NCBI GenBank assembly: GCA_029565395.1
Contig: JAKQOG010000069.1
Span: 14,322 to 78,321 of the forward strand
Direction of reading: 5' to 3'
From: Candidatus Hydrogenedentota bacterium
Lineage (GTDB): Bacteria; Hydrogenedentota; Hydrogenedentia; Hydrogenedentales; CAILVY01
DNA length: 64,000 nt
Notes under the pieces: generated by a model
The model's database searches: none
Seen by the model: only the letters and a program-made list of their open reading frames with translations
What the model was told of the DNA's origin: nothing
In this document: positions 8,113-24,554 of the stretch, one piece after another
Layout: every line of letters starts with the position of its first letter
Position numbering within the stretch: position 1 is the first letter of the stretch
Program-made: the position numbers and the translations under genes

Positions 8113-8219
8113 GTCTATTGTGGTATAATGGCCATGCGTTGCGGTGAAGGAAGATCTGGCAACGGTGAATGGAGACCGTGGTTATTGAGGAACAGGAAGA
8201 ACGGAAAAGGGTGCGGAAC

Positions 8220-9995
8220 ATGAGAGCAAATGTTATCTTTTGGCCAGTGATTTTGATCATTTGTTTGAGTGCGGGGGCCTTCGCTCAGGAAAATCCGTGC
8301 AACATCGTTGTGTCACGCGATCTGCCCGCCATGTATATTCCAGGAGGAACGGTGGAGGTGGAGTTAACCCTGAGTGGAGGGGAATCCTGTGAAATCCTTG
8401 CCTTGGGAACGTATGAAGCGATTCCGGATGGCTGGACCTTTGTATCGATGAGTCCGATCAGCGGTACGGCGCCCCAAGTTTATCCGGCGGAAGGCGATTC
8501 GGACTTGCTTGAGTTTGCCTGGTTCACGATACCGGCGTTGCCTTGTACTTTTTCATATGTTCTGAATATTCCCTGGGATGCACACGGGGAGGAAACGTTC
8601 ACCGGGAACGCTGAGTACCGTTTATTGGGCGGGCCGTTAATGTCGGAGGAAACGGTTTCGACGATAGCAGGGCCTGAGACCGAGGGCCAGGGGGAGGGGG
8701 AAGCCTGGGGTGAAGCAGAAGGCCAGGGGGAGGGCGAAGCCGGAGGTGTTGGAGAAGGCCAGGGGGAGGGAGAAAGCGGAGATGAGGGGGAAGATGAAGA
8801 AGATGGCGCTGGTGTTAACATGCAATTTGTGCGAGAACTTTCCGTGGAGCGTTACACGCCGGGTCAGCCCCTTGACGTTACGATCACGATAAGTGTTTCG
8901 ACGGCGGCAGGATTAACGGCCGTGGGGTTCTATGAAAGCTTGCCATCGGGATGGGTTTTTAATGGGTTGCGCGGAATAACCGGCGAACCGCCGATTATAG
9001 CCCCGGCGCCGGGAGATATGGGCGTGTTGGAATTTGCCTGGATCCAAATTCCAGGGTTTCCCTACACCTTTGGTTATACCGTCACTCCTCCCGAAAGTTC
9101 AGGGGGTTTGGCGTCTATATGGGGTCAGACTGAGTATCGCACCAATGGGGGGGCATTAAAATCCCCAGTGGTCATCTCTGAAATCAGCGCCGTGGAAGAA
9201 CAAACGGAAGGGGAGGGAGAAGAGGGGGAAGGAGAAGTTGGGGAGGGGGAGGGCGAGGGCGATAATCCCTCAGGAATATCGTTGGATCAACAAATAGAGG
9301 CGGAAGAATATACTCCAGGCGAAGCGTTGGAAGTTGTCATTACCATAGATACAGAGACGCCGCAAGGATTGCGGGCGCTGGGGTTGTATCAGACCCTTCC
9401 AACGGGGTGGGTGTTTAATGGCATGCGTGCCATCAGCGGGGATCTTCCCCTGGTGGCGCCTGAACCCGGCGCCATGAACTATCTGGAATTCGCATGGATC
9501 GCCATGCCCAATTTCCCCTATGTGTTCGCCTACACTGTTACGCCGGCGGAGGATGCCTGCGCGCATGTTCAGATCCATGGCCGGATTGAATACCGGACCA
9601 ATGGCCCCGCGTATTTTACGCTCATTGTCGTTACCCGAATTGCCGGGCCGGGATGTGAACCCCCAAGGGTGATGTATCCCATCGCAAGGGTGTTATATCG
9701 TCATTTTAATTGTGCGGATGCCAATGATGACGGCTATCTCAGTTTCCATGAGGCATGTGAGATTATTCCGGGGCTGACCGCGGGCCAGTTTGCGCAACTC
9801 GATGTCGATCAGGATGTTCAGTTGTCCCCCTTGGAACTTTCCACGTATTTATGCGAACACGGCCCCGCTCATGGGTGCCTCGGTGGCGATTCTGTCTTAA
9901 TTACGTTATGGGACACGGTTAAAGAGTATCTTGGCGATTTAGTCGTGTTCATCTTGTTTATATTTTCATTAATTGTAGGCTACCGGCTGGTGTAG
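8220..9995 (+). CDS. Secreted, membrane-anchored repeat protein: signal peptide, 3 copies of a ~120-aa domain with no family assignment (one A-type, two B-type), Gly-Glu linkers, EF-hand/dockerin-like Ca-binding pair, C-terminal TM anchor
   Basis: Signal peptide MRANVIFWPVILIICLSAGAFA. Domain copies carry LGTYEAIPDGWTFVSM...LEFAWFTIPALPCTFSYVLNIP, then GFYESLPSGWVFNGLRG...LEFAWIQIPGFPYTFGYTVTPPE, then GLYQTLPTGWVFNGMRA...LEFAWIAMPNFPYVFAYTVTPAE. Linkers are EGQGEGEA... and [10 protein letters not shown]. The C-terminus has DANDDGYLSFHE...LDVDQDVQLSPLEL followed by the hydrophobic LVVFILFIFSLIVGYRLV. Confidence 0.7.
   Translation: MRANVIFWPVILIICLSAGAFAQENPCNIVVSRDLPAMYIPGGTVEVELTLSGGESCEILALGTYEAIPDGWTFVSMSPISGTAPQVYPAEGDSDLLEFAWFTIPALPCTFSYVLNIPWDAHGEETFTGNAEYRLLGGPLMSEETVSTIAGPETEGQGEGEAWGEAEGQGEGEAGGVGEGQGEGESGDEGEDEEDGAGVNMQFVRELSVERYTPGQPLDVTITISVSTAAGLTAVGFYESLPSGWVFNGLRGITGEPPIIAPAPGDMGVLEFAWIQIPGFPYTFGYTVTPPESSGGLASIWGQTEYRTNGGALKSPVVISEISAVEEQTEGEGEEGEGEVGEGEGEGDNPSGISLDQQIEAEEYTPGEALEVVITIDTETPQGLRALGLYQTLPTGWVFNGMRAISGDLPLVAPEPGAMNYLEFAWIAMPNFPYVFAYTVTPAEDACAHVQIHGRIEYRTNGPAYFTLIVVTRIAGPGCEPPRVMYPIARVLYRHFNCADANDDGYLSFHEACEIIPGLTAGQFAQLDVDQDVQLSPLELSTYLCEHGPAHGCLGGDSVLITLWDTVKEYLGDLVVFILFIFSLIVGYRLV
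8680..8815 (+). repeat. GAAGGN-type hexanucleotide repeat tract that encodes a Gly-Glu acidic linker
   Basis: DNA (GAGGGCCAGGGGGAGGGG/GAAGCC...)n encodes ETEGQGEGEAWGEAEGQGEGEAGGVGEGQGEGESGDEGEDEEDG. The reverse strand gives a spurious Pro/Ser ORF (8480..8821). Confidence 0.6.
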
Positions 9996-10186
9996 CGAAA
10001 TTTTGATGCCAGAAGACGGATTGGCTTGTGAAGGGGAAAGGGGAAAACACAAGCGCTTTAACGTATTGAATGGTCCTATTGTGTTATAATTTGATTACTT
10101 GATGCGGAAACGCGCGCGTGTCGCTTTTTTAACCGCCGTCTGCGTTGGTTGAATGTACGAACACTATGTGGAATAAGGATTTGGCC

Positions 10187-11128
10187 ATGAAACCGAGCTA
10201 TGTGATGTGGGTAACCGTTCTGTTGGGTGGAATAGTCCTGATGCCGCAGGCAGTGGCGGAGAATCCATTGGGCATGACCCTGAGCAGGGAATTACCGGAA
10301 ACGTATACGGCGGGCGGCACGGTGGAGGTAGAGCTTACGCTGAGTTGTACCGGCGTGGATACAATCCTGGCCTTGGGGGCTTATGAAACCGTTCCCGCGG
10401 ACTGGACCTTTGTCAGCATGAGGGAAGTGAATGGTGCGAAGCCTCAGATAGGTCCGCAAGTGGGCGATTCCGGCACGCTGGAATTTGCGTGGTTTTCCAT
10501 TCCTGCCTTGCCTTGTACCTTTGCTTATACGCTGAATGTCCCCGCCGATGCCCAAGGGTTAAAAACCTTCACCGGGCAGATTGAATATCGCTTAGGCGGC
10601 GGACAATTGTTTTCCGATGACGAAACCTCGACAATTGTGGACGTAGTGACGGAAGGCGAAGGCGCAATAGAAGGCCAAGCCGAGGGCGAGGGCGAAGGCA
10701 TTGTTGAAGGCCAAGGAGAGGGCGAGGGGGAAGGCATTGTTGAGGGCCAAGCCGAGGGCGAAGGCGAAGGCATGACGGAAGGAGAGGCGGTTGATACATT
10801 GGCGGCGGCGGAGACGTTGCAGAATGGGTTTTCACAAGCGGATCAGAATGCGGATGGTTCGCTCAGTTTTGCAGAAGCCTCCACCTTTGCAGCCGGGCTT
10901 ACGGAAGCGCAGTTCAACGAATTGGACACTAATGGCGACGGCAGTGTGACGGCGGTAGAATTGGCGGCGTATATTGAAGCGAACACGCTGGTCTGCGGGT
11001 GCAATTGTAACAAAGCGGAGATGTATTCCGGAGATTGGTTTAAACGTTCCCTTGGCGATCTGTTTCTTGCCGGACTAGGCTTGGTTATTCTTGTGGCGAG
11101 CGCCAGAATGGGCCGGTATGGACGTTGA
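10187..11128 (+). CDS. Paralogous membrane-anchored surface protein: signal peptide, one A-type ~120-aa domain, Gly-Glu linker, EF-hand/dockerin-like pair, CGCNC motif, C-terminal TM anchor
   Basis: LGAYETVPADWTFVSM...GDSGTLEFAWFSIPALPCTFAYTLNVP...FTGQIEYR. Linker EGEGAIEGQAEGEGEGIVEGQGEGEGEG. Ca-binding pair DQNADGSLSFAEAS...LDTNGDGSVTAVELAAYIEAN. Then CGCNCNKA and the TM segment LFLAGLGLVILVASARMGRYGR. Confidence 0.7.
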   Translation: MKPSYVMWVTVLLGGIVLMPQAVAENPLGMTLSRELPETYTAGGTVEVELTLSCTGVDTILALGAYETVPADWTFVSMREVNGAKPQIGPQVGDSGTLEFAWFSIPALPCTFAYTLNVPADAQGLKTFTGQIEYRLGGGQLFSDDETSTIVDVVTEGEGAIEGQAEGEGEGIVEGQGEGEGEGIVEGQAEGEGEGMTEGEAVDTLAAAETLQNGFSQADQNADGSLSFAEASTFAAGLTEAQFNELDTNGDGSVTAVELAAYIEANTLVCGCNCNKAEMYSGDWFKRSLGDLFLAGLGLVILVASARMGRYGR

Positions 11129-11302
11129 GCCGGAAAGACTTTGGAAGTTGATGTATAAGGGGGGCGCAGGCGGTGTGGTATAATCGCGGCAATAATGTGA
11201 AGTTGGGTGGAGTATGTCACCTTTTTCTCTTCCATCCGCGTTAAATTTATGTGGGCGAACACAGGATACAATAAGGGTTTAGCCGTGCAAAGAAGGAATG
11301 TA

Positions 11303-12085
11303 ATGCTGCTGGTGATTATTTTGGCGGCCACGCTGGGATTGATCCCTCAGGCCATGGCCGATAATCCGGTGGGCATGGCGCTGACCCGGCAATTGCCGGG
11401 CACTTATACGCCGGGCGGGCCGGTGGAAGTCCAGTTGACTCTGAGCTGCAGCAATGATGAGGGTGCCATCATGGCCTTAGGGCTGTATGAGACCGTTCCG
11501 GCGGGATGGACCTTTGTCAGCATGCGTGGCGTAAGTGGTGTGAAACCGCAGTTAGGTCCCACGGCAGGTGAATCCGGCATCCTGGAATTCGCATGGTTCA
11601 CCATCCCGGTTTTTCCCTATACGTTTGCATATACCCTGAATGTTCCCGCAAACGCCCAGGGGCAACAAACCTTCACAGGGCAGATTGAATACCGTTTGTC
11701 TGGCGGGGCCTTATTATCTGATTCTGTTGTTTCAACGATGGAAGCCGGCATTTTAGTGGCGGATGCGGAGGCGTTGCGGGACGGGTTTTTACAAGCGGAT
11801 CAGGATGCCAACGGGGCGCTGAGTTTTGAGGAGGCATCGGCCTTTTTAGCGGGCCTTTTGCAGGAACAGTTTGATCAGTTGGACGCAGATGGCGACGGGG
11901 CTGTCACGTTGGCGGAATTGAATGCCTATATCGAAGCGAACACGTCCGGCGGGGGCTGCAATTGCGGCAAGGCGGCGGCCTTTTCGAAGGATTGGTTCAC
12001 GCGTTCCCTGGGCGATATGTTTCTGGCAGGCGCAAGCCTGTTGATCCTGGCGGCCGTCTCTACATTAGGCCGCCGTGAAGAGTGA
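11303..12085 (+). CDS. Paralogous membrane-anchored surface protein: one A-type ~120-aa domain + EF-hand/dockerin-like pair + GGGCNCG motif + C-terminal TM anchor (no Gly-Glu linker)
   Basis: LGLYETVPAGWTFVSMRGVSGVKPQLGPTAGESGILEFAWFTIPVFPYTFAYTLNVP...FTGQIEYR. Ca-binding pair DQDANGALSFEEASAF...LDADGDGAVTLAELNAYIEANT. Then CNCGKAAAFSKDWFTRSLGDMFLAGASLLILAAV. The SD sequence GAAGGA precedes the ATG at 11303. Confidence 0.7.
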   Translation: MLLVIILAATLGLIPQAMADNPVGMALTRQLPGTYTPGGPVEVQLTLSCSNDEGAIMALGLYETVPAGWTFVSMRGVSGVKPQLGPTAGESGILEFAWFTIPVFPYTFAYTLNVPANAQGQQTFTGQIEYRLSGGALLSDSVVSTMEAGILVADAEALRDGFLQADQDANGALSFEEASAFLAGLLQEQFDQLDADGDGAVTLAELNAYIEANTSGGGCNCGKAAAFSKDWFTRSLGDMFLAGASLLILAAVSTLGRREE

Positions 12086-12131
12086 TTGGATGGAAAAGCG
12101 ATTTGAAACAAGAGAGGCAAAAAGACTAACC

Positions 12132-13562
12132 ATGGTCTATCCAGCAATGATACGAAGCCATGTTTTTTGCGTTGGCGCAAGCGTTTTAGGACTTCTTCTA
12201 GTTATCCTAAGCGGGGGGGCATGGGCGGATGCGATCTCCAAGGCCGGCGCAACCGTGCAGGAGGGGGAACTCAATTCGATAGATATGCAGCTTTTCCGGC
12301 AGTTTACGGTAATGGAATATACGCCGGGCCAGCCGTTTGAAGTAACGATTACGATGAGCGCTTCAACCACAGAGGGATTGACGGCCATTGGATTGTATGA
12401 GACCATGCCCCCCGGATGGGTTTTTAACGGGATGCGTGGTTTGACGGGGGATCCGCCCACGGTTTCCCCCCAGCCGGGGGATATGGGCGTGTTGGAATTC
12501 GCCTGGATTCAGATTCCCGAATTGCCGTACACCTTTGCGTATATCGTCACTCCGCCGGAAACGGGGGGCGGCGCGGTTTTTATCTCAGGTCAAATTGAGT
12601 ACCGCACCACTGGAGGGGCGCAAAAATCGCCGCCGGTTATTTCTAATCTGAACGGCCAGGACCGGATTGCTCCTACTATTACGGTGCTTGGCGCCAATCC
12701 CCTGGAGGTGACGCAAAATACCGCCTTTGCCGATCCGGGCGCTACGGCGAATGATAATGTGGACGGAGACATCAGCAGCCGCGTTCAGGTGATCGGGAAT
12801 GTGGATACGTCCACGCTGGGCATGTATACGCTGACCTACCGGGTCAGCGACCAGGCGGGGAATCAAGCGGAAGCCACGCGAACCGTACGAGTGGTTTCGG
12901 CATCCACCGGAACGGGCGGGGTGTATACCGGGGGCGGCACTTCTTCCACGGGCCGTACCGGCGGTACAAGCCGGAGCTCAGCGGGCACTTCTTCCGCGGC
13001 CGCGGCGTCCAAGCAAAATACCCAGAAACCGGCCAATGTGAATGTCAATGTAACTCCCGATACTACAGCCACTGCACGTCTGGCGGAAATGATGGCGAAG
13101 CGTGAAGAAACGCAAAACAAGCTGAAGGAAGCGCAAAAGCATGTGGCCACGCCGGCGAAGAATGAAGGCGGGAAACCGCCTGCAAAAAAACCGGGTGACG
13201 CCACGGGCACCCCCGCCGCTTCTACGGAAGGGCAAGCGGAGGAAACTACGGATGCCACCACTGCAAAACCCGCTGAACCACCTAAGGAGGAAGAAACCGC
13301 GGCGCCCGTTGCCGAGGAAAATACGGCGCCGGTAGCGTCAAAACCGCCGAAGGTATCCACTACGCCCCCATCCCCGGGGATTTTTGCCGTGTTGAAGGAG
13401 CGGTTTGCCCAGATGACGCCTTCGCAACTAGCTAGTTTAATGGTGGGCCTCGCCGTCGCACTTGCATTGTTAGCGTTTACCCTGCTGGCCTGGAAAATAG
13501 CCTATAGCCCGCCTGTCAGACGCCGTCCATCTATTGAAAATCCTGTTGAAGAAGAAAAATAA
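12132..13562 (+). CDS. Paralogous surface protein: signal peptide, one B-type ~120-aa domain, Ig-like (DUF5011-type) domain, Ala/Thr/Pro/Lys-rich low-complexity stalk, C-terminal TM anchor
   Basis: GLYETMPPGWVFNGMRGLTGDPPTVSPQPGDMGVLEFAWIQIPELPYTFAYIVTPPE. The Ig-like segment APTITVLGANPLEVTQNTAFADPGATANDNVDGDISSRVQVIGNVDTSTLGMYTLTYRVSDQAGNQAEATRTVRV matches the DUF5011 pattern. The low-complexity stalk spans about aa 280-440. The TM anchor is LASLMVGLAVALALLAFTLLAW. Confidence 0.65.
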   Translation: MVYPAMIRSHVFCVGASVLGLLLVILSGGAWADAISKAGATVQEGELNSIDMQLFRQFTVMEYTPGQPFEVTITMSASTTEGLTAIGLYETMPPGWVFNGMRGLTGDPPTVSPQPGDMGVLEFAWIQIPELPYTFAYIVTPPETGGGAVFISGQIEYRTTGGAQKSPPVISNLNGQDRIAPTITVLGANPLEVTQNTAFADPGATANDNVDGDISSRVQVIGNVDTSTLGMYTLTYRVSDQAGNQAEATRTVRVVSASTGTGGVYTGGGTSSTGRTGGTSRSSAGTSSAAAASKQNTQKPANVNVNVTPDTTATARLAEMMAKREETQNKLKEAQKHVATPAKNEGGKPPAKKPGDATGTPAASTEGQAEETTDATTAKPAEPPKEEETAAPVAEENTAPVASKPPKVSTTPPSPGIFAVLKERFAQMTPSQLASLMVGLAVALALLAFTLLAWKIAYSPPVRRRPSIENPVEEEK

Positions 13563-13672: not shown

Positions 13673-13880
13673 AATAGTGATGAAAATTAGTGCAGAGGAA
13701 TGATAGAGGGGTGTTGATGTGAAGGTTCCCCCGCAATGGGGGCCAAGGAATGCGATCTGGTGCAGAGGCTCGTGGCAACCATGAGCGTGCCTGAGTTACG
13801 GCATGCCGCACTATAAAAGAGCATTTCCGTTTTGGCTGAGACTTCCAAGTGGCGGTCTTGCGTGTAATGGAGGAAGAGAA

Positions 13881-16800
13881 ATGAGGCAGGAAATGCAGTC
13901 CACCATCCGGTATTTAAAGGGTGCTTTCGTTATTGCGTGTGTTGTGGTATTGCTGTGTCCACTGGCGGCTGCTTATCATTCGGCCGACATTGACCGAGAC
14001 AATACGATCAACCTATCCGAGTTGTTGCGCACAATACAGTTTTATAATAGCGGCGGCTATCATTGTGATGCCGGAGGGGAGGACGGCTATGCGCCCGGCC
14101 CTGGCAGCAATGCATGTTTACCCCACGCCTGTGACTATGCGCCTCAGGATTGGGTGATCAATCTTTCTGAATTGCTGCGGATGATTCAGATTTACAACAT
14201 TGGAGAGTATTACGACTGTCCTGAAGGTGAAGACGGCTTTTGCCCAGGAAAGGATCCGCTGTTGAATGAAGGCGAAGCCGAAGGTGAAGGCGAAGCCGAG
14301 GGTGAAGGCGAAGCCGAGGGTGAAGGGGAAGCCGAGGGTGAAGCTGAAATTGTTGTGTTTCCCGATCCGGGGCTGGATGCAGCAGTGCGCGAGGCCATCG
14401 AAAAACCCACAGGGCCCATTTATACAACCGATCTCGCCGGTACAGGATTCACGTTCTTAAATGCGCTCTATAGAGGCATTGTGGACCTCACCGGCTTGGA
14501 GCATTGCCTGGACCTTACGCATCTATACCTGAGCAGTAATAATGTTCCTGACATCAGCCCTCTTGGCGGGCTTACCAACCTAATTTACCTTACGTTGGGT
14601 TTTGATGAGATCTCGGACATCAGCCCCTTGGCCGGGTTAGTGAATCTCGAACACCTATATCTTGGTGGCAACCAGATTTCGGCCATTGGCGCATTGACCG
14701 GACTCACCAACCTGACGTACCTGGACATCAGTGACAACCAGATCTCGGATATCAGCGCCCTTTCCGGACTTGTCAATTTAACGGAGTTGTATCTCAGTGA
14801 CAATCAGATTTCGGTTATTGGTTCTGTGGCCAGTTCCACGAATCTGACGGACCTTGAACTCGCCAGCAACCAAATCTTGGACATTAGTCCGCTGATCAAT
14901 CTTACCAACCTGACGCATCTGGACCTTGATAGCAACCAAATCTCAGATATCGATGCCGTGGCGGGGCTCACCAACTTGACGGACCTTCACTTGTTCAATA
15001 ATCAAGTCTCGGATATCGCCGCTGTGGCGGGTCTCATCAACCTGACACACCTGTTCCTCAGCAAAAACGAGGTTTCGGATATTGGTCCTGTGGCGGGACT
15101 CAGCAACTTGGCGGAACTATATCTCTACAGAAACGAGGTTTCGGACATTAGTCCCGTGGCGGGACTTACCTCTCTGACGGAATTGTATCTCAACACAAAC
15201 CAGATTTCGGACATTGGTCCTGTAGCCGGGCTTACCAATCTGACGCGTCTGGATCTCAGTTTTAACGAGATCTCGGCTATCGACACTCTATCCGGACTCA
15301 CAAATCTGACAAATCTCGGTCTTGCAAGCAACCTAATCTCAGATATTAGCCCGCTTGTTGGCAATCCGGGTATTGGACCGGCTGATTTCGTGTACTTGAC
15401 GGATAATCCCCTCAGCCAAGACGCGCTATGTATTGATATCCCAATCCTGGAATCGCGGGAGGTCCACGTATATTACGATGGGGTATGCGGAGGTGAAGGT
15501 GAGGGTGAGGGCGGAGAAGAAGGGGAAGGCGGGGCCGAAGGCGAAGGCGAAGGCGAAGGTGAAGAAGAGGGTGAAGGAGAGGGTGAAGGAGAGGGTGAAG
15601 GAGAGGGTGAAGGTGAAGGCGAAGGTGAAGGTGAGGGTGAAGGGGAGGGTGAAGGGGAGCCCTCTTTATGCGACATCGACTCGTTGGACACTTTCTATAC
15701 CATGGCACTTATAGTTGTTGATACTGATGAAGATGGAGCGCTTTCGCTGGCGGAAGCAGAGGCGTTGTTCCCGGATGCGGGAACCTACTGGGAGAGCGTT
15801 GATGCCAACGGCGACGGTGTGGTCTCGCGTGAGGAATTCGTGAGTTCACCGGTGATTTTGAGTATTTTTCCGGTGATAGACGTGGATGGCGATAACGCGC
15901 TAACGCTTGCAGAACTTCAAACATTTGCCTCGGGCATTACGCAGGCAATGTTTAGTCTTTTGGACCACGACAGTGACAGGTTCGTTGAATGTCTGGATCT
16001 TGTTGCGCGCGATGAACATCTTCACCCCATCCCGGATGATGCTGACGGCGATTTCCTGGCGAATGATGAGGAGCGGATTCTGAGCAAGAATCCGCTTATC
16101 CCGGATGAAGACGGTAATGGCCTGCCGGATGGCGTGGATCTGGCGCGCTTGCTCTATGGAATGGTTGAAGGGCTGGAGGAATTCTCGTATCCGCCGATGG
16201 GGGATTTGCCCGCAGATCACGTTTTCAAGGTGATGGAGTACCTGCGGTGTGAAACGCCGTGTTCCGTCTGCGGTGAGATGTGCAACTGCGGCAATATCAT
16301 CGTTGTTAATCCGATGTTGCATGAGACCTGGGAGCAGGGGTTCCGTCTGCCCTTCATGGCGTTTCACTATATGGCCCATGACTCGTTGAGCTTCGGGTGG
16401 GACGGCAGTGCTTACATGGACCGTGTGGATGTGGCGGGTTTGATGGCCGCCCTTATTCTTTTGGGGGCGAATCCGCATTGGCTGCCCGTGGAGGATGATC
16501 TCGACGGCGACTTGCTCATGGCAAGTGAGGAAAGCGAATTGGGCTTGAATCCGGAAGTGCAGGATGAAAACAGCAACGGCATTCCGGATGGCGCGGATGT
16601 GGCGATGGAGACCGCGGCGCAGATTGAAGAACTCGAGTGGATCTACCTTGAGGGGCAGCCGCCGTACGAGATATGGCCACCTGACTTCGAGAAGACGCTG
16701 CCCACTGATCGCCTGTACGTACTGCATTTCGACTATATGGTTGACTGCGTTTACCACTGCTCGATCTGCGGAGAGGATGTGACCATCGGCCACTTGCAGG

Positions 16801-19148
16801 TGGTTAATCCGGCTTTGCATGAAACGTGGCAGGAGGGGATAGTCATCCCGTTATGCGCCTGGCATTTCCTTGAACAAGGCTCGTTCAGCTATTTCTCCGG
16901 CATGTGCGGTCCTGAGGGCACAATTGCGCGCATCGATCCGGTGGAATTGTCTGAGGTATTGAATACGCCTCCCTACACGGGCCCTCAATTTGGGAAATAT
17001 TATGAGCCGGTTGAACCTCCGGCGACGCCCAATGCCGCCGGCTACGCACTCCCCCTGGATTTGGGCGATATTACGAATTATGACCATGTCGAGGAGGCCA
17101 TGATCTCGATTCAACTCGATTTGGGAGATACATCATTGAGCGCAAACGGTTTTGCCGTGTATGGCAATATTGATTGGCCTTTCCTGATGCCAGGGGTGCC
17201 TTTCCCGCCCGATGACATTATTGTGCCCTACGAGTATCTGCGCCTGCGGGATGTTCCCATTTTTATTACTGCTGACACGTTGCTGCATCTGTATCATGTG
17301 CAGTTCGACGAAACGCTTAGGGATATCGAGGAACGCGAGTTTGCCGCGGATATTGAGGCGTTGACCGCGGCGTTGCTTGAACGTGCTCAAGCCCAGTTCG
17401 CGCAGTACACAGGCGATCTGGCCGAGGCGGCCCGCCGGAACGTGGCGTATCTTGCCGTGGCCCAGCAGTTGCTTGCGCCCGGCGCCGAGGTACCGGCCCC
17501 AGTGGCCTTGGAAGTGGCCGGTGAACTGGCGAAGATCGCGGCGCACGAGGGTTTCGATGCCAGCGACATTTTCCTCTACAACGAGGATTACTCGCAGTAT
17601 GTGCCGCGCGGCCATTATACGCGGAGCGAAACCCTTGAGCGTTACTTCCGCGCCATGATGTGGTATGGCCGCATGGCATTTTTGCTCAAGGGTGCTGAAA
17701 ACTGGGGACCGATAGGGGAAGCATTGGTGAGTGAATACGACGCGCGCATCCAGACGCTGCAGGCGGTCCTGCTGGCCACCGCAGTGGAGGCGGTGGATGT
17801 CGGAGCACGCAGCGGCCGTGAAGTGTGGGATCGCATGTATGCGATTACGGCCTTCTATGTTGGCCTCGCCGACGATCTTACGCCGTATGAGTATCTTGAC
17901 GTGATCAACCGCCTTTTCGGGTCGGACTTCGACCCCACCGAACTAGAGGATGAACAGGCTTTCTTCACGCTCAAGACAAGGCTTGCCTTGTTGCGCACGC
18001 CGCAGATATTCGGAGGCACGGGTAATGTTTTTGTGGTGCCGCCGGTTACCCCCGATTCACTCAACCTTGTGCTTGAAAAAACCAAGGGCATGCGTTTGAT
18101 GGGTCAGCGGTTCATCCCCGATTCCTACATGTTTCAGCATCTGGTTTTCCCTGAAGTGCTCTGGTACACCGGCAGCGTCGATCCGGCGCCCTTCACCCTG
18201 GGTGAAACGGGTGGCGGCCTTGGCCGCTGCTATCCGCGCGGGCTTGACGTGATGGCCGTGCTCGGATCGTCACTTGCCGAAACCATACTTGTTGAGGGCA
18301 GCGACACGCTGTATGAAGGGTACGATGCGCGGTTGGCTGAGTTACGAGAGGAGTTCGCCGGATTCCGGCCTGCTGACTGGCATCGCAATCTTTATTGGGC
18401 GTGGCTGGACATGCTTAATCCTCTCATCACCCCGCTGCCGGAAGGCTATCCCAATTTCATGCGGACGGAGGCATGGGGCAAGAAATCGCTCAATGCCGCG
18501 CTTGCATCGTGGACTGAACTGCGCCACGATACCATCCTCTATGCCAAGCCAAGCTATACCCCCGGTTTCACGTATGAGCCGGATGTAACCGGCTACGTCG
18601 AGCCGGTCCCGGAATTTTATGGACGCCTGCTCGCCCTTACGCGCATGACACGTGAAGGATTGAGTGATTTTAGTGCGCTCTCGCCTGAAGCTGAAGCACG
18701 GTTGGTCAGTCTGGATTCGGTGCTCGAACGGCTCCTTGATCTTGCGGGGAAGGAGCTTGCCAACGAGTGGCTGACGGAAGACGATTACGAGTACATTCGC
18801 ACGTTCGGCAAGGTGCTTGAGAGCGTGGTGTTTGGGTTGAACGAGGGTGAAGGCGAAGGCGAGGGCGTGGCGGAAAGTCTTCGAACCACGCTGGTTGCCG
18901 ATGTGCATACGCATGGTATCGAAGCACTGGTGGTCGAAGAGGCCGTGGGCAATGTGGACTTGATCGCCGTCGCCTGTCCCACCCCTGCCGGCGAGGTCTT
19001 CCTCGCTCTTGGGCCCGTGTTCGCCTACTACGAGTTCAAGCATCCCATGAATGACCGGCTTACGGATGAAGCCTGGCGCGAATTGCTTGCCTCAGTGGAT
19101 GCGCCCAAACGTTCGGAATGGTACACCCTGGTGGTGGACGAGAAATAG
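13881..19148 (+). CDS. 1756-aa secreted multidomain protein: N-terminal tandem atypical dockerin-like module, Gly-Glu linker, about 25 internalin-type LRRs, Gly-Glu linker, EF-hand-like triplet, duplicated TSP3-like/Cys (CxxCGE...VVNPxLHETW) modules, ~800-aa C-terminal domain of unknown function
   Basis: Signal peptide LKGAFVIACVVVLLCPLAAA. Dockerin-like repeats [27 protein letters not shown]...EDGYAPGPG and INLSELLRMIQIYNIGEYYDCPEGEDGFCPG. LRR units such as LTNLTYLDISDNQISDISALSGL. EF-hand-like repeats DTDEDGALSLAEA, DANGDGVVSREEF and DVDGDNALTLAEL. Cys modules CSVCGEMCNCGNIIVVNPMLHETWEQG and CSICGEDVTIGHLQVVNPALHETWQEG. Confidence 0.75.
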   Translation: MRQEMQSTIRYLKGAFVIACVVVLLCPLAAAYHSADIDRDNTINLSELLRTIQFYNSGGYHCDAGGEDGYAPGPGSNACLPHACDYAPQDWVINLSELLRMIQIYNIGEYYDCPEGEDGFCPGKDPLLNEGEAEGEGEAEGEGEAEGEGEAEGEAEIVVFPDPGLDAAVREAIEKPTGPIYTTDLAGTGFTFLNALYRGIVDLTGLEHCLDLTHLYLSSNNVPDISPLGGLTNLIYLTLGFDEISDISPLAGLVNLEHLYLGGNQISAIGALTGLTNLTYLDISDNQISDISALSGLVNLTELYLSDNQISVIGSVASSTNLTDLELASNQILDISPLINLTNLTHLDLDSNQISDIDAVAGLTNLTDLHLFNNQVSDIAAVAGLINLTHLFLSKNEVSDIGPVAGLSNLAELYLYRNEVSDISPVAGLTSLTELYLNTNQISDIGPVAGLTNLTRLDLSFNEISAIDTLSGLTNLTNLGLASNLISDISPLVGNPGIGPADFVYLTDNPLSQDALCIDIPILESREVHVYYDGVCGGEGEGEGGEEGEGGAEGEGEGEGEEEGEGEGEGEGEGEGEGEGEGEGEGEGEGEGEPSLCDIDSLDTFYTMALIVVDTDEDGALSLAEAEALFPDAGTYWESVDANGDGVVSREEFVSSPVILSIFPVIDVDGDNALTLAELQTFASGITQAMFSLLDHDSDRFVECLDLVARDEHLHPIPDDADGDFLANDEERILSKNPLIPDEDGNGLPDGVDLARLLYGMVEGLEEFSYPPMGDLPADHVFKVMEYLRCETPCSVCGEMCNCGNIIVVNPMLHETWEQGFRLPFMAFHYMAHDSLSFGWDGSAYMDRVDVAGLMAALILLGANPHWLPVEDDLDGDLLMASEESELGLNPEVQDENSNGIPDGADVAMETAAQIEELEWIYLEGQPPYEIWPPDFEKTLPTDRLYVLHFDYMVDCVYHCSICGEDVTIGHLQVVNPALHETWQEGIVIPLCAWHFLEQGSFSYFSGMCGPEGTIARIDPVELSEVLNTPPYTGPQFGKYYEPVEPPATPNAAGYALPLDLGDITNYDHVEEAMISIQLDLGDTSLSANGFAVYGNIDWPFLMPGVPFPPDDIIVPYEYLRLRDVPIFITADTLLHLYHVQFDETLRDIEEREFAADIEALTAALLERAQAQFAQYTGDLAEAARRNVAYLAVAQQLLAPGAEVPAPVALEVAGELAKIAAHEGFDASDIFLYNEDYSQYVPRGHYTRSETLERYFRAMMWYGRMAFLLKGAENWGPIGEALVSEYDARIQTLQAVLLATAVEAVDVGARSGREVWDRMYAITAFYVGLADDLTPYEYLDVINRLFGSDFDPTELEDEQAFFTLKTRLALLRTPQIFGGTGNVFVVPPVTPDSLNLVLEKTKGMRLMGQRFIPDSYMFQHLVFPEVLWYTGSVDPAPFTLGETGGGLGRCYPRGLDVMAVLGSSLAETILVEGSDTLYEGYDARLAELREEFAGFRPADWHRNLYWAWLDMLNPLITPLPEGYPNFMRTEAWGKKSLNAALASWTELRHDTILYAKPSYTPGFTYEPDVTGYVEPVPEFYGRLLALTRMTREGLSDFSALSPEAEARLVSLDSVLERLLDLAGKELANEWLTEDDYEYIRTFGKVLESVVFGLNEGEGEGEGVAESLRTTLVADVHTHGIEALVVEEAVGNVDLIAVACPTPAGEVFLALGPVFAYYEFKHPMNDRLTDEAWRELLASVDAPKRSEWYTLVVDEK
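14266..14345 (+). repeat. GAAGGY hexanucleotide microsatellite encoding the (EGEA)n linker
   Basis: gaaggcgaagccgaaggtgaaggcgaagccgagggtgaaggcgaagcc... encodes EGEAEGEGEAEGEGEAEGEGEAEGEAE. Confidence 0.7.
14480..15400 (+). repeat. Internal ~66-bp repeats that encode 22-aa leucine-rich repeats
   Basis: The LxxLTNLTxLxLxxNQISDIxPLAGL unit recurs about 14 times in the protein segment this DNA interval encodes (about 25 across the whole LRR region, to aa ~510). Confidence 0.7.
15487..15662 (+). repeat. GAAGGN / GAGGGT hexanucleotide repeat tract (second Gly-Glu linker)
   Basis: Encodes GGEGEGEGGEEGEGGAEGEGEGEGEEEGEGEGEGEGEGEGEGEGEGEGEGEGEGEP. The reverse strand yields the spurious PSPSPS ORFs 15412..15708 and 15473..15691. 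Confidence 0.7.
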
Positions 19149-19250: not shown

Positions 19251-19715
19251 TTATGCGTTGGGCGGGGTGAATTGGCTCCGGTATTCATCGTCGAGTTGTG
19301 TTTGGTAATTGTCGTCCCATTGAGCGGCGTGGTCGTGAAAGGAAAGCTTGATGGTGCTGTATACCTGCCGGGAGTTGCGGAGGGCGTAAGGGGGGCCGGC
19401 AATCAGCGTCAGGGCCAGCAGGGCGACGGCAAAGCGGGGGATGAAGGCATTGATCCGGAGCTTGGGGAGGAAGGCAACGATTTCTTGAATAGGTTCGATG
19501 GCGGCCATGCGCGTGCGCAGGGTTTCGAAGGAATAGGCGGGGCCGGGGCATACCAGAAATTCGTGGCAATCCTGGAGAAAGTGTTTGGCGTGGGCGAATT
19601 CTTCCTGGCAGGCGGGGCATTCCGCGATATGGGCTTCCACCCGGCGGCGCTCGGCGGGACGAAGGTCGCCGTCGAGGTATCCGGTAAATCTGCTCTGTAT
19701 GGTTCTGCATTCCAT
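19251..19715 (-). CDS. Anti-sigma factor with an N-terminal zf-HC2 zinc-finger
   Basis: MECRTIQSRFTGYLDGDLRPAERRRVEAHIAECPACQEEF carries the H-x3-C-x2-C anti-sigma zinc-finger motif. It lies immediately downstream of an ECF sigma gene. Confidence 0.7.
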   Translation of the reverse strand: MECRTIQSRFTGYLDGDLRPAERRRVEAHIAECPACQEEFAHAKHFLQDCHEFLVCPGPAYSFETLRTRMAAIEPIQEIVAFLPKLRINAFIPRFAVALLALTLIAGPPYALRNSRQVYSTIKLSFHDHAAQWDDNYQTQLDDEYRSQFTPPNA

Positions 19716-19727
19716 AAGGCCGTTCTC

Positions 19728-20321
19728 CTACACCGTCCGGTCCACTTTGTTGGTAAACACCGTCGATAACACATGCCGGACTTTCTTCACGGCGAGAATC
19801 TTTCGGGATCGCACTGTATTGACCGGGCAATCCAATGCCTTGGCTATATCCTCAATGGATAATCCATGAATATTGCGCATTACGAACACCATGCGTTGTT
19901 CTTCGGGCAATTCTTCCACTGCGTTCAGAATCTGCTCTTGGACTTCGGAGCGGACCGCGCACACATCCGGGCCGGCGGCGGGATCGGCCGGGACTTCCCA
20001 TGAATCGTTCAGTTCCTTCTGCAACCCCAGCCGCCAGAGTTTTTTCTGGCTCCGGCAGCGTTCCAGCCAAATCATCCGGGCGATGGCAAACAAATACCCC
20101 GGGAAGGCGCCTGTAGCACAATACCGTTTGCGCACCCGCCAGATGCGCAAGAAGGTTTCCTGGCATAAGTCGTTGGCGGCGTGGGGATCGGCGGTCATGC
20201 CATAGAAAAAGTTGATCACGCGGTGCTGGTAGCGTTCGTGCAGGGTTTCAAAAGCACGCTCGCTGCCCTCGCGCACCTGAAGCATAAGTGCAATGTCGGA
20301 GACCTGTACTGCCGGTTCCAT
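19728..20321 (-). CDS. ECF-type RNA polymerase sigma-70 factor (sigma-24 family)
   Basis: The region-2 motif LCQETFLRIWR and a region-4 HTH (HGLSIEDIAKALDCPVNTVRSR). 197 aa. Confidence 0.9.
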   Translation of the reverse strand: MEPAVQVSDIALMLQVREGSERAFETLHERYQHRVINFFYGMTADPHAANDLCQETFLRIWRVRKRYCATGAFPGYLFAIARMIWLERCRSQKKLWRLGLQKELNDSWEVPADPAAGPDVCAVRSEVQEQILNAVEELPEEQRMVFVMRNIHGLSIEDIAKALDCPVNTVRSRKILAVKKVRHVLSTVFTNKVDRTV

Positions 20322-20408: not shown

Positions 20409-22265
20409 TTATGCCTGGCCGTATTCGGGCAGGGTGGCTCCAGGCTGATCCAGCGAGATAGGAACGCCCGCATTGGTATATTTTTTGAGCACGAGGACTC
20501 TATAGGCCCTGCGGAAAGATTCCAGAATAACCACCACCACGCAAAACATAATGACGATAGTAAGGACGCAGTCAATGGTTCCCACCAGGAATTTACCGGG
20601 TTGTTTGATTAAGGGGAGGTAGTTGTGCAGGACGTTGAGATATCCGGCATACAGGGTGGTGACCGCCAGGAAGGCTTCGGGGATCAGGGTGACCCAGATA
20701 TAGCGGACTTTTCCGGCGTTGATGATGGCAGCGCCCGCCACGGCCAAAGCGGTGGTGGCGAGCAATTGATTGGCGGTGCCGAACATGGGCCAGATGGTGG
20801 AGATGGTGCCGCTCCAGATAAAGTATCCCCAGGAGAACACGACGAGTCCGCTGGTGAGCAGGGTGCCGAACATCCAGTCGGTTTTTTGGAAAGGTTTGTA
20901 GACCCGGCCCAGATATTCCTGGAGCAGGAAGCGGGCCACGCGGGTGCCGGTATCGATGGTGGTGAGGATGAAGAGGGCTTCGAACATGATGGCGAAGTGA
21001 TACCAGTAGGACATGAGCGCTTTCATGCCGGGCAACCCGGAAAAGATTTGTGCGAATCCGACCGCCAGGGAGACGGCTCCGCCCGGGCGGCCTGCGACGT
21101 TTTCGCCGACTTCTTTGGAGAGTTCGGCGAGGTTCACGGGGGTCATGTTCATGGCGGCGAATTTTTCCGGGGCCACGTTAATGGCGAAGTAGTCGGCGGG
21201 AAAGAGGGAGCAGGCGGCGATGAGGGCAATCACGCTGACGATGCATTCGACCATCATGGCGCCATATCCGATGATCCGGGTGTCGGACTCTTTGGTGATC
21301 ATTTTGGGGGTAGTGCCGGAGCCGATGAGGGCATGGAATCCCGAGACTGCTCCGCAGGCAATGGTGATAAACAGAAAGGGAAATAGTTTTCCAGGGATGA
21401 TGGGCCCGCCTCCATGCAGGAATTCCGGATTCAGGGCGGGCATTTTGAGGGTTGGATGCACCAGGAACACACCGGCAATCAGCAGGATGATGGTTCCGAT
21501 TTTCAGGTAAGAACTCAGGTAATCGCGCGGGCATAGGAGCATCCACACGGGCAAGACCGAGGCGATGAATCCGTAGAGAGCAATGGCGAGCACGATTCCG
21601 TTGCGTGAGAGGTTAAAGTAGGGTTCCAGGAAGGAGCCGGGAATGGCGCCGCCGATTATCACGGCTAACAAGACGCCGGTCACGCCTATGGCGCTGGCTT
21701 CAGCGATTTTTCCGGGACGTATCCGGTACATCCACAAACCGGTCAGGAGCGCCATGGGGATGGTCATGGCGATGGTGAAGGTTCCCCAGGAACTTTCCGC
21801 CAGTGCGTTGACGACGGCGAGGCCAAGACCTGCCAATGCGACGATGATAATAATGATGACGGCCACGGAAGCAATGGCGCCGGCGAGCGGGCTGACTTCG
21901 TGGCGCGCGATCTCCGCGAGGGATTTTCCGTCCCTCCGCATGGAGGCCACGAGAATGGTGAAATCATGCACGCCGCCCGCAATAAGCGCCCCCATGAGCA
22001 TCCACAGAAGGCCGGGGGCGTACCCGAATTGCGCGGCCAGCACGGGGCCAATCAGAGGCCCGGCGCCGGAAATGGCGGCAAAATGGTGTCCGAACAACAC
22101 GTATTTGTTTGTGGGGTGATAGTTCGTCCCATCATACATGGTTTGGCTGGGCACTTTTCGGGTATTATCCAGCGCCATGACTTTCGCCGCCAGAAAGGCG
22201 CTATAATAACGGTAGGATAAAGCTGTAAGGATCAATGCACCCAGGACAATCGGAACCGCGTTCAT
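20409..22265 (-). CDS. cstA: Carbon starvation protein A (peptide/pyruvate transporter CstA)
   Basis: [36 protein letters not shown] and [29 protein letters not shown] are near-identical to conserved CstA blocks. 618 aa and multi-TM. Confidence 0.95.
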
Positions 22266-22409
22266 GGCGCCCTCCCTTTTTGTTGGAATTCATACTCCGA
22301 AACAAAAGCATTTGGCGAATTCTAGCAAGTTTGCGGCGCCATCACAACTTAACGCGCATTTGTTCTTGCGGCGTTCCGTCCATTAATGAGGGAAGTTTTT
22401 TCCGGGTGT

Positions 22410-24554
22410 TTAGTTGGAATCGAAATCGCTATCCTCCAGCATCTCTACCCGTTTGCTTGGGGCAGCTAGTCTTCCCAGTTTCCTGGCGGGTGCGTCTTCG
22501 ATGACTTCGGCAGCACGGACCTGTGTTGCGAAAGGCCTTTTTTCCTGTTGATGCACGGCAGAAGTCTCATCGGATGATTTTCCGCCAATGATGCCTTCCA
22601 GAACATGGACCAGGGATCGCAATTCTTCCGCCTGGCCGGACAGTTCTTCGCTGGCGGAGGCGGCTTCTTCCGAGTGGGCGGCATTGGTCTGGGTGATTTT
22701 GTCCATTTGGGTAATTGCCACGTTGATTTGATCGATTCCGCGGGACTGTTCCGAGGTGGCGGAGGATACTTCGTCGGAACGTTTTGCCACGCTGTCGATT
22801 TTTTCCATGACTACGTTCAGCACGGAAGACACTTCGTTGGATACGCTCACCCCGTGGTCGGCATTTTTTTGGGACTCCTCGATTAGGGCCGAAGTATTTT
22901 TAGCGGCTTGTGCGCTGCGTTGCGCGAGATTCCGGACCTCTTCCGCCACGACGGCGAAGCCTTTGCCGGCTTCGCCGGCCCGGGCGGCTTCCACGGCGGC
23001 ATTTAAGGCGAGGAGGTTCGTTTGAAACGCGATGTCATCAATCGTTTTGATGATCTTGGCGGTTTCATCGGAAGATCCCTTGATGCGGGTGATCGCTTCC
23101 GTCATGCGCTCCATGGCTTCCCGGCCTTGTACCGTTGCCTGCCGGGCATCGCTGGCATTTTGATTGGTCTGCCGGGCGTTTTCCGCATTTTGGGCGGTCA
23201 TGGCAGTCATTTCCTCCAGCGATGCGGAGGTTTCTTCCAGGCTTGCCGCCTGAGAGCTGGCGCCTTCGGCGAGACTTTGGCTGGATTGCGCCACTTGTGC
23301 GGCAGCGCCGGTCACTTGCTGTGCAGCGCCCATCAACTGACTGACGACCATGGAGATCCGCCTCACTAGTCCTCTGGCCACCAGGTACCACACCACAATA
23401 CTCAATACAATTACGGCAAGCGAGATTCCCAGCAGGATCATCATACTGCTGAAGCTGATTTCCTGAACCCGCCGTTCGCCCGCCTGAAATTCATCCATGT
23501 ACGAGCCCACGCCAATGACCCAATCCCATGGTTTGAAATACATGATTTGGACCACTTTCATGCGGGCAACGGGATCACCAGGATTTTTCCAGGGATACTG
23601 ATCCTCGGCGATTTCTCCGGCATTGAGCGTCAATGCTTTTCCGATGATTCGTTGTATGAACAATTCGCCGCCGGCATCTTTTGCTTCCCAAATATTCTCG
23701 CCGTCCCGTTCTCCATTTTTCGAGATGACATAGTTCCCCTGGGTGGTTCCGGATCCATTCAATACATATACATAGCCGGTGTCCCCTACTTTTGTTTTCA
23801 TAATGGCCTGCCGCAAACTGGTCGCGCTTTCCTGAGGCACCCCCACAAACAACATGCCCGCCACTTTCTTCTCTTTGTCAAAAATGGGTTCATACGCAGT
23901 GATATACCACCCATCCACCACAAACGCCCGCCCGCGGAATGTTTTCCCCTCTAACACGGTTTTAATGGTGGTGTTTTCTTTGCCATCGGGCTCCATGGCG
24001 GGAATATACGTTCCCACGGCCCGGCTCCCTTCTTTCGTTTTGATATTGGTGCAGACCCTCAGCATGTCCCCCGCAGCATTCATCCGCTGAAAGATGGTGC
24101 ACATGCTGTCCGACAAGGTTTTCACCTTATCCACCACCGGCGACGGAACCGCACTATCCATGTTTTGCCCCAACCAGGTTGTTCCGAGCATAAACTTGGG
24201 CAAGGAAGCTTTCACTTCTGCCCCGCTTAATTGGTTTTTGGCGTTCCAATCCACCGTTTCAGCACTGAAACTCACTTCTCCGGCATCGTTCAAGCAGTCT
24301 CGTGCAACGTTAAGATTGTTACTGACGGTTTTTTGGATAACTTCTTCCTGGGATTCACACAAGGCATAGACTCCCTGGGCAATATGTGCTAGATCCGTTG
24401 ATGCCAATACCCGGCATTCTTCAGCCAATTCGATTTCCATGCGCCGGTTTTGAAAATAGAGGGCTATGATGATAGCCAAAACCACGAGTATCGTTAACAG
24501 CACCCCCGTCCCTATCAGTTTTCCCCGTAGTGCAAGTCGTCCCATTGGATTCAT
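22410..24554 (-). CDS. Methyl-accepting chemotaxis protein with a periplasmic double-Cache (dCache_1) sensor, HAMP and MCP signalling domains
   Basis: N-terminal TM, a Cache-like periplasmic region of about 300 aa, a second TM, then the conserved MCP hairpin ([37 protein letters not shown]). Confidence 0.9.

Follow-up and report, generated by a model that had tools for sequence, protein, structure and literature searches.

The question raised by this locus is what kind of protein is encoded by the gene at 13881..19148 (+ strand) in a 64-kb stretch of DNA from a Candidatus Hydrogenedentes bacterium (the whole stretch is called the window below), and what the Cys/His-containing unit is that occurs twice in it. 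The gene most likely encodes a secreted, modular extracellular protein. Its leucine-rich repeats (LRRs), EF-hands and linkers were found to be ordinary, and its C-terminal domain is a known domain of unknown function (DUF). The unit family is uncatalogued: it is a real and widespread domain family, whose fold is predicted with confidence and lacks a solved relative in the libraries searched.

The Cys/His unit defines an uncatalogued domain family

Two copies of one unit had been reported in the initial annotation of the gene, and they were confirmed at the following positions, each with loops resembling thrombospondin type 3 (TSP3) repeats.

Unit 1: 16017..16472, + strand, aa 713-864; TSP3-like Asp loops, helix and alpha/beta part, with C794-x2-C797 and H829-x3-H833
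Unit 2: 16476..16976, + strand, aa 866-1032; 'NPxLHxxW' sub-type, with C960-x2-C963 and H995, Q999 replacing the second His

In an internal repeat comparison the two units shared 38% identity over 139 aa (E 5e-29). Unit 2 was 56% identical to units of the proteins P0179 and P0186 and 49% identical to the unit of P0015, while the nearest relatives of unit 1 were units of P0162, P0128 and P0199. Since unit 2 is closer to foreign units (56%) than to unit 1 (38%), the two are best read as old sub-types without recent duplication, so that the earlier description of the module as duplicated holds for the number of copies and not for a recent event. No further unit was found in the window outside this gene.

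The module had also been called distinctive, and this was borne out by the searches. No model of Pfam (2025 copy) or NCBIfam (2026) covered the units; unit 1 had no Pfam family match, and unit 2 had an unrelated weak match to FpoO alone (E 0.092). The unit profile retrieved only non-significant zinc-ribbon proteins from the PDB sequences, and a literature search on the unit found nothing. The segments of the protein thus do not all belong to known adhesin families, because the unit stays unassigned to any catalogued family.

A word-indexed search with both window units returned one fragment, P0001, whose contig encodes at least four tandem units. The family was revealed by a full hidden Markov model (HMM) scan, in which a four-copy profile was compared with 1.84 billion cluster representatives and gave 2522 matches, 97 of them below 1e-30. 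Among the best 150 of the 2522 matches, about 124 proteins contained 1-5 full-length units and the rest matched the TSP3-like front alone. The units were 135-165 aa long across the family. The window units matched the family profile with domain E values of 2.6e-38 and 4.4e-39, the profile itself containing both of them; apart from that profile, they were 40-56% identical to units in P0162, P0179, P0186 and P0015. The database search that had been proposed for the CxxCGE...VVNPxLHETW module led to a widespread uncatalogued family, in which the 'NPxLHxxW' sub-type accounted for 11 of 233 units, mostly present as a single copy in large surface proteins with EF-hands, immunoglobulin (Ig)-like domains or TSP3 repeats. 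Units of this sub-type were also found in the DUF3160 proteins P0015 and P0232.

Conservation within the family was concentrated on putative metal ligands. In a 56-sequence MAFFT alignment, E731, C794, C797 and H829 were invariant and the unit-opening His (HWLP) was conserved in more than 90%. In the set of 233 units, the Asp columns D8, D10, D12, D30 and D38 of the two TSP3-like loops were 91-99% conserved, CxxC was present in 225, mostly as CxxCG..NMG, the first His in 231, and the second His, four residues on, in 79%; the spacing CxxC-x27-HxxxH was kept in 135. Conservation beyond the Ca-loop Asp/Glu and the putative Zn ligands was limited to Asn, Pro, Gly and one Arg. AlphaFold2 modelled the unit from the 56-sequence alignment with pLDDT 95.1 and pTM 0.88, placing the CxxC turn between strands 79-81 and 88-90 and the two His on or at the end of helix 113-120. 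No match to this model was found in the PDB by Foldseek (best TM-score 0.19).

Based on this pattern, the TSP3-like Asp loops of each unit would hold Ca2+, and a putative C2H2-type site, composed of the CxxCG knuckle between beta strands and the invariant His on the next helix, would hold Zn2+, with the fourth ligand provided by the His four residues on or by the conserved His at the unit start. Judging from the conserved residues and the predicted model, the site is probably of the C2H2 type and Zn2+-binding. Of the two roles suggested earlier for the module, metal binding was supported by conservation, and nothing was found to support a catalytic role.

The unit was compared with the two known groups that it resembles. 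The first ~40 residues carry loops of the TSP3 type (PF02412, PF18884; CglD, MtsD), namely DxDxDxL..EE and D.D.NG.PDG; PF18884 was reached by 13 of 55 unit-family proteins, and CglD matches partially. However, the window units gave no TSP3 profile match, the loops form the front of a 135-165-aa globular unit, and the Cys/His site is missing from TSP3 repeats. With C2H2 fingers and zinc ribbons (eL43, bL32, LysW) the unit has in common the CxxCG beta-hairpin knuckle and the helix with HxxxH, but differs from them by about 27 residues and two extra strands between the Cys and His pairs and by its extracellular context; the profile matches to eL43, L32 and C2H2 fingers were weak and non-significant (E >= 0.03). 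Membership of unit arrays in DUF7565 or zf-C2HC_2 was rejected, because the summed weak matches spanned the 20-residue CxxCG knuckle alone.

As a separate observation, the contig of P0001 (L001) contains at 755-757 an in-frame stop at a conserved unit site (RGL-stop-RCDLCG, compared with RGLERCEVCG in the neighbouring unit), and the unit array continues in frame past it; the stop could be a sequencing error, a sign of a pseudogene or a recoded stop.

Distribution of the unit and its association with a second Cys-rich domain

A degenerate DNA pattern for CxxCGExVNMG, which catches about 18% of units, was run on GTDB contigs with one genome per species. It matched 104 loci, and true units were encoded at 96 of them. 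The listed records were all from uncultured organisms, being metagenome-assembled genomes (MAGs) and one single-cell assembly, and belonged to Pirellulales, Sedimentisphaerales, Phycisphaerae, Verrucomicrobiota, Gemmatimonadota, Latescibacterota, Calditrichota and Krumholzibacteriota, as well as Cloacimonadota, Marinimicrobia, WOR-3, KSB1, Eisenbacteria, Myxococcota and Cytophagia. Although neither Pfam nor NCBIfam has a model for it and Foldseek gave no solved relative, this well-defined ~140-aa domain is present in at least 96 species-level MAG loci.

Two architectures predominated. In one, 2-4 units follow a basic N-terminal tail and a hydrophobic anchor; in the other, a 170-aa Cys-rich domain comes first, then a hydrophobic segment, 2-5 units and a type IX secretion system (T9SS) sorting domain. 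The 170-aa domain has the pattern ...ELAYLALLT..GLKPLSRWE...FGYPPCC...LFHWAC..C..., and its single Pfam similarity was a sub-threshold one to DUF483. This DUF483-like domain was fused to the units or encoded by a separate open reading frame (ORF) in 84 of the 96 loci (e.g. L009 2211-4385, L014 4564-6297): it was an N-terminal fusion in 42 loci and a separate ORF in 48, which lay directly downstream of the unit gene on the same strand in 44. That the two are fused in some genomes and encoded side by side in others points to a functional link between the units and the 170-aa domain. Definition of the unit family would annotate hundreds of 'hypothetical' surface proteins, and would show how strongly conserved its tie to another uncharacterised Cys-rich domain is.

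The surface proteins carrying units also contained T9SS sorting domains, Ig-like domains, EF-hands and TSP3 repeats. The window units share all family invariant residues with the uncatalogued arrays elsewhere (P0123, P0126, loci L005-L108). Canonical arrays combine 2-5 units in tandem with a membrane anchor, often adding a T9SS sorting domain; the window units, by contrast, are divergent sub-types inside a DUF3160 protein and lack the partner domain, for which the six-frame translation of the window gave no match at E<=1.

The N-terminal layout of some T9SS-ending proteins was odd for T9SS cargo: P0123, P0125 and P0144 (also L015, L058 and L076) start with the 170-aa domain without a signal peptide, and only later comes a hydrophobic segment that ends in AFA followed by AP.

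The C-terminal domain is DUF3160

The C-terminal region had been described as a domain of about 800 aa without any nameable motif. It was identified as follows.

DUF3160 (PF11369): 16992..19145, + strand, aa 1038-1755 (about 715 aa) by homologue alignment; HMM match aa 1085-1747

The PF11369 match covered profile positions 7-631 of 632 with E 6.4e-195 and 649.8 bits (cut-off 25), so the region is a catalogued family of about 715 aa, smaller than had been thought and not motif-less, although its function remains that of a DUF as stated earlier. Relatives of the domain numbered 4279 at E<=1e-10. The best 120 of these were 61-68% identical over 715 aa with 97-100% coverage (93% for P0116), and came mainly from metagenome bins of Planctomycetota (Sedimentisphaerales, Phycisphaerae). 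Alignment of 30 sequences left about 200 columns without variation. Six His and several Asp, Glu and Arg residues fall in these columns, which include H1136, H1139, E1144, R1243-G-H1245-Y, R1548-H1549-D1550 and D1674-V-H1676. At 18843-18866 an (EG)4 insertion (aa 1655-1662) was observed inside the domain, where homologues have a short 'VEEKG.K' loop; it is of the same acidic repeat type as the interdomain linkers of this organism.

In thousands of secreted proteins DUF3160 forms the unchanging, highly conserved core, while the domains joined to it differ from one protein to another; these partners are dockerin, cohesin, Big_2, right-handed beta-helix, disaggregatase-related, DUF5818 and PD40 propeller domains. 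As in the window protein, the domain stands at the C-terminus behind the variable accessory domains. Among the best 120 homologues, an LRR domain was listed for none and the unit for P0015 alone. Two other DUF3160 proteins with one N-terminal unit were found, P0015 (dockerin, unit and DUF3160) and P0232 (unit and DUF3160), so the combination is rare and not unique. A homology search with the whole protein was dominated by giant LRR proteins and missed an identical partial entry, and is uninformative on whether LRRs and DUF3160 are combined elsewhere. The LRR and Ca/Zn-module contexts are thus newly added to a common, conserved secreted family, and DUF3160 proteins with an attached targeting domain may aid a guess at the substrate.

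DUF3160 has been listed as a 'secreted enzyme', without experiment, by Makarova et al. (PMC4158269). In the literature search the name DUF3160 turned up in a single paper, and PF11369 and IPR022601 were not mentioned anywhere. The structure prediction proposed earlier for the C-terminal ~800 aa was run on DUF3160 and reached pLDDT 57 with no usable fold match. Because the model is poor, its Foldseek matches (bd oxidase, P450s and an HD-GYP domain; E>0.2, TM<=0.23) are no evidence and were regarded as noise. A lipoprotein of about 200 aa together with an epimerase was considered as a general partner of DUF3160 and rejected, as the pair was present in three related Planctomycete contigs and absent from two others and from the window. 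In those three contigs the lipoprotein gene, without a Pfam match, lies 3' of the DUF3160 gene (L002 10792-11403, L004 10903-11619, L112 3204-3776) and is followed by an NAD-dependent epimerase gene.

Gene model and N-terminal modules

The gene is a single unbroken ORF from ATG 13881 to the stop codon at 19146-19148, with 1755 codons plus stop. The longest ORF in the same frame is 13803..19148, and ATG 13881 has GGAGG 9 nt upstream. The ORF and start of the initial annotation were therefore kept, and its length of 1756 aa was corrected to 1755 aa. The frame is open for 5265 nt from 13881 and runs across both low-complexity repeats, and the composition is uniform along the gene. Promoter and terminator scans of the flanks gave signals no better than shuffled sequence. 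In public protein entries only the last 833 aa are represented, by the partial record HPO13632.1 ('DUF3160 domain-containing protein, partial [Candidatus Hydrogenedentes bacterium]'), which is 100% identical; the record is truncated where its contig, DAONNH010000028.1, runs out within unit 2. The full-length sequence was absent from a collection of 15 billion proteins, and the complete architecture is therefore un-annotated there. The modules upstream of the units were as follows.

Predicted Sec signal peptide: 13881..13973, + strand, aa 1-31; basic stretch, hydrophobic core AFVIACVVVLLCPLAAA, then AAA followed by YH, as read from the sequence
N-terminal double motif: 13974..14255, + strand, aa 32-125; two copies of 'D..(I/V)NLSELLRxIQxYNxGxYxxC'
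(EGEA)n acidic linker: 14265..14351, + strand, aa 129-157; from the sequence and a tandem-repeat scan
LRR domain: 14352..15488, + strand, aa 158-536; N-cap, 13-14 repeats of 22 aa (aa 209-494) and two-Cys C-cap
(GE)n acidic linker: 15489..15659, + strand, aa 537-593; from the sequence and a tandem-repeat scan
EF-hand domain: 15660..16016, + strand, aa 594-712; canonical loops at 614-625, 641-652 and 667-678, variant loop at 695-706

The N-terminal pair had been called dockerin-like. Its doubled motif was recovered and its identity as a dockerin was not: Dockerin_1 (PF00404) gave no profile match on aa 1-130 at E<=10, and the best EF-hand profile match in this region was weak (E 0.012). The first copy has a canonical EF-hand loop (DIDRDNTINLSE), and in the second copy (DYAPQDWVINLSE) the ligands of the Ca loop are missing. 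No Pfam model spans the double motif. It also starts the unit-bearing proteins P0181 (aa 24-120) and P0247 (aa 22-118), and the form recurring in these two and in the window protein is ...(F/Y)NSGGY.C ... DYNPQDW.I.LSELLR.IQ.FNAGGY.

The (EGEA)n and (GE)n linkers had been placed correctly, and both were detectable as tandem repeats in the DNA. The three D-x-D-x-DG repeats reported earlier correspond to the three canonical EF-hand loops, to which the fourth, variant loop was added (aa 614-706 in all); EF-hand_5, _1, _6 and _7 profiles matched aa 594-712 at E 1e-13 to 1e-10.

The LRRs are of the internalin type in strict 22-aa register (Pfam LRR_4, E 5.5e-62; NCBIfam InlA, partial match, E 6e-72). 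Eleven repeats were anchored by a regular expression over aa 231-494, one 44-aa gap was counted as an extra repeat, and the remainder was assigned by eye to aa 209, giving 13-14 in strict register and not the ~25 first reported. The protein shares with Listeria class 1 internalins (InlA, InlH; NF033189, NF033188) the 22-residue repeats LxxLxxLxLxxNxI(S/T)DI. Unlike them, however, it scored far below the family cut-off: among NCBIfam InlA, InlH, InlJ and InlK, the best score was 243 bits for InlA, against a cut-off of 1600. The internalin inter-repeat Ig-like domain gave no Pfam match at E<=0.1 in the 1755-aa protein, and no LPXTG or GW cell-wall anchor was found, the C-terminus being DUF3160, which ends ...WYTLVVDEK. 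The host belongs to a Gram-negative-type candidate phylum, unlike Listeria. 'Internalin-like' is thus an apt term for the repeats and not for the family.

Possible function of the modular protein

The explanation that holds about half of our confidence is that of a secreted modular protein in which DUF3160 is the effector, the LRRs target it, acidic linkers give it reach and Ca/Zn stabilises the EF-hands and units. DUF3160 would most likely be an enzyme acting on an extracellular polymer, because strong conservation is combined with shuffled accessory domains. The LRR solenoid would supply target recognition, the (GE)n stretches would serve as extended spacers, and the EF-hands and units would be Ca-/Zn-stabilised structural or binding modules, acting as spacers or binders. 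Compared with the membrane-anchored tandem arrays that are usual for the unit family, a divergent sub-type would here have been recruited singly into a larger protein, without the DUF483-like partner. As an example of domain shuffling among the secreted proteins of uncultured bacteria, such a protein is unsurprising in kind.

Several points weigh against this explanation. Both the signal peptide call and the metal binding of the units depend on sequence reading, for the latter on the sequence pattern and predicted secondary structure only, and unit 2 is without the second His of HxxxH (Q999). DUF3160 gave no match to the PDB with a single sequence or with a profile and has no solved structure, and its AlphaFold2 model, built from 30 homologues 62-68% identical, had pLDDT 57. 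No partner gene was conserved across lineages in five DUF3160 neighbourhoods and the window. The very high conservation of DUF3160 could also come from a non-enzymatic role or from recent horizontal spread.

The foremost rival, of lower probability and still to be taken seriously, is a pure adhesin or surface scaffold, in which DUF3160 is non-catalytic and the LRRs, units and DUF3160 together attach to cells or particles. All recognisable accessory domains are binding or structural ones (LRR, EF-hand, TSP3-like loops). In other proteins, units are found within giant adhesin-like chains that also have Ig-like, cadherin and HYR domains, and DUF3160 showed no recognisable catalytic motif of any known enzyme class. 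However, adhesins diverge fast, and for them it would be unusual to keep 61-68% identity across phyla over 715 aa, with about 200 columns invariant; one large domain that stays constant while dockerin, cohesin, Ig and beta-helix modules are shuffled around it is an arrangement typically seen in secreted enzymes.

A more speculative proposal, which we hold tentatively and consider improbable as it stands, concerns the unit itself: it would be a new extracytoplasmic Ca/Zn fold that forms the outer part of a two-part membrane system and has now become a portable cassette on DUF3160. A membrane-anchored array of 2-5 units would be coupled to a cytoplasmic 170-aa DUF483-like domain, fused or adjacent, and the system would span Planctomycetota, Verrucomicrobiota, Gemmatimonadota, Myxococcota and phyla of the FCB group. 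The Hydrogenedentes unit would then be a portable ligand-binding or metal-sensing cassette on the putative enzyme DUF3160.

A cellulosome-like assembly, which is compatible with DUF3160 as a targeted secreted effector, was judged unlikely. The N-terminal double motif would dock on a cell-bound scaffold, possibly the four membrane-anchored paralogues encoded upstream (8169-13562). The first copy contains a canonical Ca loop, the pair resembles a duplicated dockerin Ca segment, and many DUF3160 homologues have a true Dockerin_1 or cohesin domain at the same N-terminal position. The products of the upstream genes are surface proteins in which beta-rich domains are repeated and the C-terminus carries a membrane anchor, and the motif starts other unit-bearing proteins as well. 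But the motif lacks a Dockerin_1 profile match and its second copy lacks the Ca ligands, and no cohesin profile match was obtained for the upstream proteins.

It is very doubtful that the units are catalytic or redox-active, with CxxC as a thiol-disulfide site or the Cys/His cluster as a metalloenzyme centre. The CxxC in 225 of 233 units and the one invariant His would fit such a role, and since the fold has no solved relative, homology excludes no function. In thioredoxin-type sites, however, CxxC is found at the start of a helix, whereas the CxxCG of the unit lies in a predicted beta-hairpin knuckle followed by a helix with HxxxH, which is the pattern of structural zinc. The residues conserved beyond the Ca-loop and putative Zn ligands are just Asn, Pro, Gly and one Arg, and the units occur in 2-5 tandem copies as structural repeats do.

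Finally, it is hardly credible that the gene is a pseudogene or a chimera produced by misjoining at the (GE)n repeats: the public assembly of the same organism does break within the gene, hence the deposited partial protein, and low-complexity repeats of this kind assemble poorly, but the frame stays open for 5265 nt across both repeats with even composition, the public break lies inside unit 2 and away from (GE)n with the shared 833 aa 100% identical, and units are independently fused to DUF3160 in P0015 and P0232.

Genomic neighbourhood

Upstream of the gene, four consecutive paralogous surface-protein genes are located at 8169-13562 (+ strand). Each contains 1-3 copies of a beta-rich domain of about 130 aa with the pattern ...YTPGG.VEV.LTL...GW.FVSM...LEFAW..IP..P..F.Y...EYR..GG.... 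Linkers of the (GE)n type and an EF-hand region were present in three of the four and a C-terminal hydrophobic anchor in all, and the fourth has an extra Bact_surface_Ig-like domain. With the DUF3160 gene included, the group makes up a cluster of 11 kb that encodes Ca-binding surface proteins.

On the other side, a pair of genes at 19251-20321 (- strand), convergent with the DUF3160 gene, encodes an extracytoplasmic function (ECF) sigma factor (19728-20321) and a zf-HC2-type anti-sigma factor (19251-19715); beyond this pair lie CstA and a Cache-domain chemoreceptor. In positions 1-42000 of the window the majority of long ORFs are on the + strand, and the GC skew was 0.09-0.25 in every 2-kb bin except 22001-24000 (-0.035).

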